Source: a virus (Duplodnaviria > Heunggongvirae > Uroviricota > Caudoviricetes). From it: DNA of 64,000 nucleotides. The DNA is taken from the IMG/VR virus record IMGVR_UViG_3300029982_000015; one strand, 5' to 3'. Each line of letters starts with the position of its first letter. Position 1 is the first letter of the stretch. The translations under genes and the position numbers were made by a program. Positions 4,102-34,615 of the stretch are shown here, piece by piece. Below the pieces are notes generated by a model. It was not told where the DNA came from. It saw only the letters and a list, made by a program, of their open reading frames with translations, and did no database searches.

Positions 4102-4608
4102 ATGGCAGTGAGAAGAGAGTGGAACATGGCCTTTGAGAAAAGCAATCCCGAGAAGCGTATCTACTGTGTAGTTGCACAGACTGTGCAGACATTTACAACT
4201 GAGGTCGCAACCAAGTCCCACCTTGCACTGCGTTCAACGGAGAGTACCCGAACTGTGGTTCAACCAGCCGGTCGGCTCATCGCTCAGGCTGCTCACGTAA
4301 TCAGCAAGGTGCGGATTGAGATGCTGGTCAACACCCTCATCATTGAGCGTAAGCCCAAAAACCTACTCCCGGCCTACTCCTTTGAGCCGATAACCACCAT
4401 CATCCTCAGCGCCCGTGATAGCTATGAGTTGTATCACGTGCTCAACCTGTTGAATAAAGCAAGACTGAGCGTACACAGTTTCTACGACTTCAACCAGCCG
4501 GATTATGGCAGTCCGACATGCGAAGTCATGACATCCATCGCAACAGAGCCCGTAGACCCGGCTGAGGTTCTAGGTATCCTTGACTACCTTCCATTGTGGA
4601 AGCCTTAG
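4102..4608 (+). CDS. peptidyl-tRNA hydrolase, PTH2 (archaeal/eukaryotic-type) family
   Basis: GRLIAQAAHVISKV matches the PTH2 GKIAAQCxHA motif; C-terminal block resembles PTH2; start could instead be ATG 4126. Confidence 0.5.
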   Translation: MAVRREWNMAFEKSNPEKRIYCVVAQTVQTFTTEVATKSHLALRSTESTRTVVQPAGRLIAQAAHVISKVRIEMLVNTLIIERKPKNLLPAYSFEPITTIILSARDSYELYHVLNLLNKARLSVHSFYDFNQPDYGSPTCEVMTSIATEPVDPAEVLGILDYLPLWKP

Positions 4609-4720
4609 TCTACTAAAAATTTTCCAACCAAACCCCTTGCAACTTCCCGTAGTAAGTAGTAACGTTGTATCACGCAAAACAAAGTGCTCTCCGGAGCCTT
4701 TTTGAAAGGGATGAACAACT

Positions 4721-33334: not shown

Positions 33335-33340
33335 AGAGAC

Positions 33341-34615
33341 ATGGACATGAGAGAAGCCGCTGAATTCGTGTTGAACACCCTCCGCAAGGCAGGATTTGAA
33401 GCCTACTTTGCTGGTGGTTGTGTTCGTGACTTTGTGATGGGACGGACTCCTAAGGATTTTGATATCACAACCAATGCCCGTCCAGAGCAGGTCACTCCCC
33501 TGTTTGATAAGACCATACCAGTCGGTGCTGCATTCGGCGTCGTGGTGGTGATGGTGGGAGGGTTTCAGTTTGAGGTCGCCACCTATCGTGCTGACGGTGC
33601 CTACAGCGATGGCCGTCGCCCCGATGAGGTTACCTACAGCAATTCCGCCGAGGAAGATGTAAAGCGGCGGGACTTCACCATGAACGGGCTCCTGATAGCC
33701 AATCCGTTTGATGCCCTCATGACCGATTACAGTCTCGGCGTCCTCGACTACGTGGGCGGCAGGGATGACATCGAAAACCGGGTCATCCGGTGTATCGGCA
33801 ATGCCGACACGCGCTTCAAAGAAGATGCATTGCGGATGTTGCGTGCGGTTCGCTTCGTTGGTCAGTTAGGCTTCGAGATAGAGGCGGAAACCTTCAAGGC
33901 CCTACAGGCGAACGTGGACAGCATAGTCAACGTCTCCCGCGAACGTGTTGCGGAGGAGTTGAAGAAGCTGACCACATCCAAGTTCGCTGCCAGAGGGTTG
34001 GCGGCGTTGGCGTCTACTGGTTTGCTGCGTCGTCTGCTGCCTGACGGTGTTTCCGATACGCGCTTCGCCTTTACACTGGAGCGGTTCGCTATGTTCCAAA
34101 CAACCGACCCCGTGATGGGTCTGGCGATGTTGCTGGCTGATACTCAGACCAACGAGATGGCAGCGTTGACCTGCGACAGCTTCAAGCTGTCTACGGATGA
34201 ACGTGACGCCATCTTGGGTGCGGTTAGAAATCAGGAAGCCATAGGTTCAATTGGCTCTCCGGCTGGTACCAAGCTGTTGGCTCGTGAGAAGGGTGTACTG
34301 CCGTATGCAGTAGACCTGTTCGAGCAGAACATAGGTTTGGGCTTTGCAAACGGTGTAGAGGCAGGGATGGATGCAGTACTGCGGTACAGGGCATTAACGC
34401 CGGAAGACATACGCCCATCACCGTTTGTCTCTGGCCGGGATTTGATAGAGATGGGATTCACGCCGGGGCCGATGTTCACCACGGTTTTAAGGGCGGTGGA
34501 GTTCGGTCAATTAAACGGCACATTGACCACCCGCGAACAGGCACTCGGCTTCGCTAAGTTCGAATCCGGGGTGCAGGAAACAGCAGCCTTCGTCAAGAGC
34601 GAAGCGGAAAGGTAA
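33341..34615 (+). CDS. cca: tRNA nucleotidyltransferase (CCA-adding enzyme), class II
   Basis: YFAGGCVRDFVMGRTPKDFDITT (GGxVRD...DxD) and EEDVKRRDFTMNGLL (RRDFTIN) head-domain motifs. Confidence 0.85.
   Translation: MDMREAAEFVLNTLRKAGFEAYFAGGCVRDFVMGRTPKDFDITTNARPEQVTPLFDKTIPVGAAFGVVVVMVGGFQFEVATYRADGAYSDGRRPDEVTYSNSAEEDVKRRDFTMNGLLIANPFDALMTDYSLGVLDYVGGRDDIENRVIRCIGNADTRFKEDALRMLRAVRFVGQLGFEIEAETFKALQANVDSIVNVSRERVAEELKKLTTSKFAARGLAALASTGLLRRLLPDGVSDTRFAFTLERFAMFQTTDPVMGLAMLLADTQTNEMAALTCDSFKLSTDERDAILGAVRNQEAIGSIGSPAGTKLLAREKGVLPYAVDLFEQNIGLGFANGVEAGMDAVLRYRALTPEDIRPSPFVSGRDLIEMGFTPGPMFTTVLRAVEFGQLNGTLTTREQALGFAKFESGVQETAAFVKSEAER

Follow-up and report, generated by a model that had tools for sequence, protein, structure and literature searches.

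A 64,000 nucleotide stretch of viral DNA (IMG/VR record IMGVR_UViG_3300029982_000015; Caudoviricetes), referred to in its whole length as the window, was analysed for five genes with putative RNA- or tRNA-related functions. These encoded a divergent PTH2-fold protein, a histidine phosphatase, a fusion of an HNH nuclease with an Rnl2-like RNA ligase domain, an HD-superfamily phosphohydrolase and a class II CCA-adding enzyme. All five open reading frames (ORFs) were present on the + strand (Table 1), where they start at 4.1, 14.4, 19.3, 23.3 and 33.3 kb and are separated by over 40 other ORFs, and their superfamily-level identities were confirmed. An earlier note on this DNA had proposed that they form a distributed toolkit for RNA and tRNA repair and processing; we put the probability that they are a dispersed RNA/tRNA maintenance set, countering attack on the tRNA pool, at roughly 50%.

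The window was densely coding, mainly on the + strand, with a GC content of ~51%. A megablast search found no near-identical phage record at the DNA level, and the 40-mer at the left end of the window did not occur in IMG/VR; two contigs, Ga0311363_10000197 and ERZ27249201 k141_607481, overlap with the window. At the protein level its relatives were jumbo phages. The source is a peat/soil jumbo phage, and the window is best explained as part of its early/auxiliary region. The nearest cultured relative was the acidobacterial phage Tunturi_5 (309 kb; Acidobacteriota host), which held the best or only cultured relative of three of the five proteins (PTH2-like, histidine phosphatase and CCA enzyme). 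A protein identical to the PTH2-like protein was found on peat/bog metagenome contigs of 116–123 kb, where rIIA-like and rIIB-like genes and Ku lay upstream of its gene. Loci of relatives are given below by L-numbers (e.g. L147), L002 being Tunturi_5 (PP885688).

Table 1. Location of the five genes, associated features and other genes mentioned in the text (window coordinates unless a relative is named).
Feature	Location	Strand	Basis or remark
Divergent PTH2-fold protein	4102..4608	+	Sub-threshold Pfam PTH2, AlphaFold2 model, Foldseek
Histidine phosphatase, branch 1, RHG catalytic motif intact	14408..15253	+	His_Phos_1
HNH nuclease + Rnl2-like ATP-dependent RNA ligase nucleotidyltransferase domain	19318..20358	+	Pfam, phrog_24030
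COG4339-type HD-superfamily phosphohydrolase	23259..23927	+	phrog_19425, invariant residues, fold
Bacillus-type class II CCA-adding enzyme without HD domain	33341..34615	+	Pfam, NF009814, 1MIV
48-codon remnant of HNH-Rnl 5′-end, cut off mid HNH motif	18228..18371	+	Amino acid identity
Free-standing homing-endonuclease-like gene (helix-turn-helix + endonuclease VII/HNH type)	18605..19336	+	phrog_3322/3118/1035
Phage promoter-like bipartite motif CTAGCCAAAA-N13-GGTATACT	33304..33334	+	Upstream of CCA gene
Promoter-like motif CTAGCCAAAA-N13-GGTATACT	18492..18522	+	Upstream of homing endonuclease / HNH-Rnl pair
73-amino acid ORF	~13194–13415	+	Weak CN_hydrolase match
rIIB-like	413–1636		
Ku	1767–2738		PF02735, E=8e-30
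MVP-like protein	4721–7276		MVP shoulder + Vault_3 repeat
Short LigD-like ATP-dependent DNA ligase	11371–12264		Ligase domain only
TnpB/IS605 OrfB-like	25692–26900		Cas12f1-like TNB + OrfB_IS605
PARP protein	28191–29696		PARP catalytic + PARP regulatory domain
GmrSD_N (DUF262) protein	44857–45432		
1325-amino acid protein	60019–63996		Toxin-binding domain + zinc ribbons
Protein X in L147	9373–9966		
Protein X in L148	9198–9746		
Protein X in L161	11356–11940		
Protein X in L163	11349–11936		

The CCA-adding enzyme was recovered as the earlier note had described it. Pfam thresholds were passed, with matches to the PolyA_pol head (E=3e-35) and to the PolyA_pol_RNAbd RNA-binding domain, and the head motifs GGxVRD, DxD, RRD and EDxxR (among motifs A–E) were visible in the sequence. 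The CCA tRNA nucleotidyltransferase model NF009814 matched amino acids 5–401 with 282 bits, 8 under its equivalog cutoff of 290; poly(A) polymerase PcnB models reached amino acids 2–235 (head and neck) only. The best PDB match was the CCA enzyme of B. stearothermophilus (1MIV, E=4e-58). Specificity for CCA is predicted. Orthologues with ~48–50% identity were located in the Rnl1-CCA-X-HisPhos clusters described below. A weak tblastn match downstream of the CCA gene (35,839–36,105; E=0.001–0.007) was considered as an Rnl1 remnant and rejected; it crossed a stop codon, and a second Rnl1 query did not yield it.

The fusion of an HNH nuclease to an Rnl-type ligase, also claimed earlier, was borne out by Pfam matches above threshold to HNH (amino acids 23–65, E=6.6e-8) and to RNA_ligase PF09414 (amino acids 166–316, E=2e-31), the latter spanning model positions 2–171 of 171. 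The protein matched phrog_24030 ‘RNA ligase’ over its full length (E=5e-105) and its HNH domain also matched IscB-type HNH. Residues C23, C26, H36, H37, N53, C58, C61 and H62 of the HNH domain were invariant in 5 orthologues, and the ligase motifs EKxDGE (with the KxDG lysine), CxEN, EGxVxRP and KxVR were invariant in the orthologues. The protein ended ~30 amino acids past motif V and the Rnl2 C-terminal domain was absent from it; T4 Rnl2 needs its C-terminal domain for nick sealing. No PDB ligase was found as a solved relative of the ligase domain by single-sequence or 5-sequence profile search, and the subfamily label ‘Rnl2 with N-terminal HNH’ comes from a survey of RNA repair in jumbo phages (PMC7824862).

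Homologues of the HNH-RNA ligase with 41–51% identity were present in phages of 235–485 kb, namely LR745208, Salicola SCTP-2, Ralstonia RsoM2USA, Caulobacter CcrSC/BL9 and Acinetobacter ME3, and IMG/VR contained 389 relatives. Neighbourhoods were counted over the best 80 loci of these 389. tRNA genes lay within 10 kb at 34 of the 80 loci, within 2 kb at 25 and within 500 bp at 13, and many HNH-Rnl loci were embedded in arrays of 12–27 tRNAs.

Upstream of HNH-Rnl in the window lay the remnant of a second copy of its 5′-end, which showed 65% amino acid identity to the N-terminus of the resident protein and 79% to the L003 orthologue. The DNA of the remnant and of the resident gene had diverged, with a 12-nt identity at the break point only. 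The stop codon of the homing-endonuclease-like gene between them overlapped the start of HNH-Rnl. An endonuclease homologue also directly precedes HNH-Rnl in L072 and in L088, neither of which has the remnant. The possibility that a group I intron separates the remnant from the full gene was also considered; Rfam gave no match at the gathering score or at E≤1, and the element was therefore read as a free-standing homing endonuclease. The order of remnant, endonuclease and diverged HNH-Rnl resembles the scar left by homing or by allele replacement.

The HD phosphohydrolase of the earlier note had no Pfam match, the HD model included, and no NCBIfam match, but its assignment was upheld by other evidence. 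It matched phrog_19425 ‘phosphohydrolase’ (E=1.5e-30), its homologues are named ‘predicted metal-dependent HD superfamily phosphohydrolase’ (JGI), and H59, H63, H90-D91, D145 and D147, which make up an H...HD...D motif, were invariant in the family. A profile search matched the HD protein YedJ (E=0.002). The AlphaFold2 model (predicted local distance difference test score, pLDDT, 95.5) had an all-helical HD fold with Foldseek matches of the phosphodiesterase/YpgQ type at a template modelling (TM) score of ~0.5–0.57. The gene probably starts at 23,301. tRNAs were near distant homologues (<40% identity) at 13 of 30 loci, some of these in tRNA arrays, and a CCA enzyme lay within 2.5 kb of the homologue in L122, L126, L128 and L133. 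Cellular contexts of the homologues (Streptomyces; an NMNAT-like fusion) were also inspected and were either uninformative or pointed to nicotinamide adenine dinucleotide (NAD)/ADP-ribose.

For the gene that the earlier note had called a PTH2-type peptidyl-tRNA hydrolase, the fold was recovered but not the Pfam family assignment: PF01981 matched with 17 bits (E=0.007) and the gathering cutoff of 23 was not reached. A profile of the family found Pth2 (2zv3) in the PDB at E=0.39 only. There were 143 homologous proteins at E≤0.001, and a precomputed PF01981 match was recorded for 21 of the 120 homologues listed. A model built on 53 homologues with AlphaFold2 had a pLDDT of 92 and a predicted TM score of 0.86, and its top 14 Foldseek matches in the PDB were all Pth2/Bit1 (probability 0.66–1.00, target TM 0.49–0.77), the first 13 of them with a probability of 1.00 and a target TM of 0.70–0.77; relative to Pth2 the model had an extra beta-hairpin and helix insertions. 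In the family alignment G49-R50..Q54..H57 and D121 were invariant, which places, by motif alignment alone, an invariant Arg at the canonical GK Lys position and retains the Asp of the DAG motif. In S. solfataricus Pth2, mutagenesis reportedly identified two catalytic residues, the GK..AQ..HA Lys and the DAG Asp. The Pth2 fold is thereby established at the level of the model, and peptidyl-tRNA hydrolase activity is predicted. The start is probably the ATG at 4126, giving 160 amino acids, because the identical database protein has this length. Among 50,697 phage records one contained a BLAST-detectable relative, that of Tunturi_5 (35% identity); the family as a whole is a well-populated, divergent PTH2-fold clade from soil jumbo phages in which Arg replaces the catalytic Lys. 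The description of several members of the set as eukaryote/archaea-flavoured applied to PTH2 alone, the other four belonging to ordinary bacterial/phage families.

The histidine phosphatase, as called earlier, matched His_Phos_1 (PF00300) above threshold (E=1e-28). R17, H18, R116, E145 and H212 were invariant across 38 sequences of the family, and profile matches in the PDB were to PhoE, PspA and Fru-2,6-BPase, which are small-molecule phosphatases. Single-protein scans of IMG/VR with the histidine phosphatase or the CCA enzyme gave no matches and alignment-based scans were needed. Neighbourhoods were counted at 37 metagenome loci whose flanks measured 4 kb or more. RNA-repair neighbours were present at only 11 of them, and 10 of the 37 had a core of a CCA enzyme, a protein that we call X and the histidine phosphatase (CCA-X-HisPhos); 8 of these 10 also had Rnl1 and 6 had Pnkp. 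The order was (Pnkp)-Rnl1-CCA-X-HisPhos in L147, L148, L187, L232, L234, L236, L237 and L239, and Pdf-Pnkp-...-HisPhos-Rnl1-CCA-X in L161 and L163. Elsewhere, RtcB-HisPhos-RNase T was located within a 25-tRNA array (L164) and the phosphatase gene stood between a tRNA and a SpoU methylase (L144). RtcB, the histidine phosphatase and an HD-containing CCA enzyme were scattered through tRNA islands in L162 and Tunturi_5; the Tunturi_5 CCA enzyme (gp279), RtcB (gp296) and phosphatase orthologue (gp303) were all inside a 37-tRNA island.

In related jumbo phages, the gene immediately after an HD-less CCA enzyme was always that of protein X (~190 amino acids). Protein X had no Pfam match and its LHGR...GxERGG pattern recalls an alpha/beta-hydrolase without the serine; no homologue was found in the window. 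We tentatively propose, while holding it to be rather doubtful, that histidine phosphatases of this branch-1 family heal RNA ends as a so far unrecognised component of jumbo phage tRNA repair modules, with which protein X may belong. The phosphatase would strip a 2′-/3′-phosphate, or pyrophosphate added by a toxin (e.g. toxSAS enzymes of the CapRel/FaRel type), from the tRNA 3′-end, and the CCA enzyme or a ligase would then complete the repair. The survey of RNA repair in jumbo phages (PMC7824862) makes no mention of a histidine phosphatase, and a full-text literature search turned up no publication that connects this family with RNA repair in phages. The occurrence of the phosphatase in RNA-repair clusters, together with protein X, is thus possibly the only new element of this locus, its basis being gene neighbourhood; the recurrence of both in Pnkp-Rnl1-CCA clusters nominates them as new RNA end-processing enzymes for biochemistry.

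Just upstream of the histidine phosphatase gene in the window was the 73-amino acid ORF with a weak CN_hydrolase match. The closest relative of the window encoded a full NAD synthase (CN_hydrolase and NAD_synthase, 591 amino acids) between the histidine phosphatase and HNH-Rnl, and the ORF may be a remnant of such a gene.

In relatives, four of the five families (HNH-Rnl, HD, histidine phosphatase and CCA enzyme) were thus associated in a conserved manner with tRNA genes and with RNA ligases, and it is these that carry the reading of the set as RNA/tRNA maintenance; the PTH2-like family showed no such link. Substrates, cooperation among the five proteins and a counter-defence purpose are what we infer. 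Going by the chemistry of the families, the HNH-Rnl2-like ligase would seal 3′-OH/5′-PO4 breaks in tRNA, the CCA-adding enzyme would rebuild damaged tRNA 3′-ends, and the histidine phosphatase, perhaps with the HD phosphohydrolase, would clear blocks of the 2′/3′-phosphate type for either of them. The PTH2-fold protein would free tRNAs that stalled translation has stranded of their peptidyl or N-acyl-aminoacyl groups. Acting together, the five would sustain translation when host nucleases or tRNA-modifying toxins attack the tRNA pool.

Such a repertoire has been described for jumbo phages by Iyer, Anantharaman, Krishnan, Burroughs and Aravind (2021, Viruses 13:63; PMC7824862), and the present locus is a further example of it. 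That survey reports Rnl2 ligases fused to an N-terminal HNH, CCA-adding enzymes that restore tRNA 3′-ends, archaeo-eukaryotic PTH2 for ribosome rescue and HAD, calcineurin-like and HD-like phosphatases for end healing, and views them as dispersed means of countering the attack of the host on tRNA. The window shares with it the set of HNH-Rnl2, CCA enzyme, PTH2 and HD-like phosphoesterase, but differs in having a histidine phosphatase and a divergent PTH2-like protein (sub-threshold in Pfam, with Lys replaced by Arg).

Comparison with bacteriophage T4, in which Pnkp and Rnl1 counter the anticodon nuclease PrrC, showed phage-encoded end healing and ATP-dependent ligation of cleaved tRNA to be the common theme, and Pnkp and Rnl1 stood beside the CCA and histidine phosphatase orthologues in relatives of the window phage. 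The window itself has neither, its ligase being an Rnl2-like domain behind an HNH nuclease. CCA enzymes of the E. coli type, with a C-terminal HD domain, likewise combine CCA addition with a phosphoesterase for repair of the tRNA 3′-end, and CCA enzymes with an HD domain were found in Tunturi_5, L133, L162 and L164. The window CCA enzyme is of the Bacillus type without HD, whereas its HD protein is encoded by a separate, unrelated gene 10 kb away, so that the HD-CCA link is contextual and comes from distant phages. Tunturi_5, with 43 tRNAs (PMC11924767), has a PTH2-like protein, a histidine phosphatase and a CCA enzyme with 35%, 49.6% and 34% identity to those of the window but uses RtcB, and no HNH-Rnl of Tunturi_5 was among the best 30 of 35 matches.

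Several results weigh against the proposed maintenance set. Its genes were 4–18 kb apart, among unrelated MVP-like, TnpB, PARP, AAA ATPase and HNH genes; they did not form an operon-like cluster of adjacent, co-oriented genes in the window, adjacency being seen in relatives only. No tRNA gene was found in the 64-kb window, nor was any Rfam family found there at the gathering score. Pfam scans of 70 window ORFs (the five under study and 65 further) detected no polynucleotide kinase (AAA_33/PNK)/Pnkp, RtcB, Rnl1, 2H, Macro, KptA, Hen1 or RlaP, so the search for tRNA genes, Pnkp and Hen1 that the earlier note had suggested for the complete genome came back empty for the window. With no kinase or healing genes there, the 2′,3′>P / 5′-OH breaks of classical anticodon nucleases are not healable by the visible set and the T4-style heal-and-seal pathway is therefore incomplete in these 64 kb; the visible set would then be limited to repairing the cuts of metal-dependent nucleases, unless the rest of the genome supplies the missing genes. 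The PTH2-like family had no tRNA gene near any of 17 loci and no RNA/tRNA link, in addition to its Pfam shortfall and its Lys-to-Arg replacement. The HD and histidine phosphatase folds best matched small-molecule/nucleotide phosphatases, about two thirds of the sufficiently flanked histidine phosphatase loci were without any RNA-repair gene searched, some contexts (NAD synthase, NMNAT-like fusion and, in one genome, an NAPRTase beside the phosphatase gene) pointed to NAD metabolism, and some HD homologues pointed to NAD/ADP-ribose metabolism. In the window's own clade (L003, L013, L019, L170 and P0176) the order was rIIA/rIIB-Ku-PTH2-like ... DNA ligase-HisPhos-(NAD synthase)-HNH-Rnl-HD-AAA. 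This arrangement was often far more compact than that of the window, with DNA ligase, histidine phosphatase, HNH-Rnl and HD all within 8 kb in the closest relative (L170). No tRNA gene was near any own-clade locus, and the synteny may be mere collinearity of related genomes.

One alternative is that the genes serve phage translation as housekeeping, maturing, proofreading and recycling the phage's own large tRNA set through CCA maintenance, trimming of tRNA ends and removal of the peptidyl-tRNA that drops off while late proteins are made in massive amounts. Housekeeping is the normal function of CCA enzymes and of Pth, relatives hold 18–43 tRNA genes next to such enzymes (see also PMC11924767), and RNase T, SpoU methylase and peptide deformylase occurred in the same neighbourhoods. 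We nevertheless regard this as unlikely. Hosts already own a CCA enzyme and Pth, the window has no tRNA gene of its own, and the conserved partners are RNA ligases and Pnkp, for which no part in the maturation of bacterial tRNA is known. CCA was encoded by 35 of 36 Tunturi_5 tRNA genes, which speaks for a role of the enzyme there in repair and not in de novo addition or maturation.

The genes could also be functionally unrelated auxiliaries that share an accessory region by chance, the HD protein and histidine phosphatase acting on nucleotides or NAD/ADP-ribose metabolites, HNH-Rnl being a selfish mobile cassette and the PTH2-like protein having a substrate other than tRNA. Their dispersal in the window fits this account, as do the metabolite phosphatases and phosphodiesterases among the best relatives of the HD protein and histidine phosphatase, the NAD synthase, NAPRTase or NMNAT-like fusion beside some homologues, the homing endonuclease and remnant flanking HNH-Rnl, and the majority of phosphatase loci, at which none of the RNA-repair neighbours searched was seen. 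It is made improbable by the tight Pnkp-Rnl1-CCA-X-HisPhos and RtcB-HisPhos clusters that recur in several distinct genomes, by the strong enrichment of HNH-Rnl and of distant HD homologues beside tRNA genes, and by the invariance of the ligase and HNH catalytic residues.

A further alternative is a nucleic acid end-repair block of PTH2-like, HNH-Rnl and HD genes with Ku and the LigD-like DNA ligase. DNA ends would be processed by the HNH and HD domains, and DNA nicks that terminate in ribonucleotides would be sealed by the Rnl2-like ligase. The gene order conserved in the clade of the window speaks for it, as do the preference of Rnl2-type ligases for nicks in duplexes with a 3′-OH RNA strand and the use of ribonucleotide-tailed ends by bacterial non-homologous end joining (NHEJ). 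We hold it to be very unlikely, since outside that clade HNH-Rnl was linked to Ku at 1 of 80 loci and to a DNA ligase at 5, against 34 for tRNA genes, so that the synteny is best explained by collinearity of related genomes.

The repertoire confirmed here is ordinary for jumbo phages and the main gain is better annotation. In Tunturi_5, gp303 (248,875–249,570) is labelled ‘DNA methyltransferase’ yet is a His_Phos_1 orthologue, and gp176 (123,966–124,397), labelled ‘hypothetical’, is the PTH2-fold orthologue; these labels look like annotation errors or gaps. As acidobacterial phage-host pairs exist (Tunturi_5), the predictions are testable in vivo.

The promoter-like motif consisted of an A/T-rich tract followed by aCTAGCCAAAA, N13 and cGGTATACT. 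It occurred 11 times on the + strand and once on the − strand, the GGTATACT half being located on the + strand at 1753, 8577, 9984, 11,049, 18,515, 27,063, 27,422, 27,797, 28,177, 33,327 and 46,873; the 12-mer core was observed 4 times against 0.24 expected. At 7 of the 11 sites (Ku, PARP, the CCA enzyme and others) an ATG followed exactly 6 nt downstream, which suggests leaderless mRNAs, and the transcript of the CCA gene is probably leaderless because the motif ends 6 nt before its ATG. The motif was seen in contigs of the same phage only.

The 65 further ORFs included Ku, the MVP-like protein, the LigD-like ATP-dependent DNA ligase, a ClpB-like AAA ATPase, TnpB and PARP, together with a helicase-methyltransferase, GmrSD_N, TPR and more HNH genes; a weak, sub-threshold match resembling Lar_restr_allev was also present. 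Together with the rIIB-like gene, Ku and the LigD-like ligase suggest a phage-encoded NHEJ-like pair, and the order of these genes is kept in related soil jumbo phages. The MVP-like gene directly followed the PTH2-like gene. An orthologue of the PARP protein (44% identity) was located near the CCA/HisPhos cluster of L163. Between the AAA ATPase and PARP was the TnpB-like gene, a relative of transposon-type RNA-guided nucleases within a phage genome. The 1325-amino acid protein contained the C-terminal toxin-binding domain of Xre/MbcA/ParS antitoxins (amino acids 938–986) in addition to zinc ribbons, was split into two genes in the related contig L157 and may be a polyvalent anti-defence protein. 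The GmrSD_N protein was 59% identical to part of Tunturi_5 gp317 (‘DefenseFinder protein’, BrxU/GmrSD-like).

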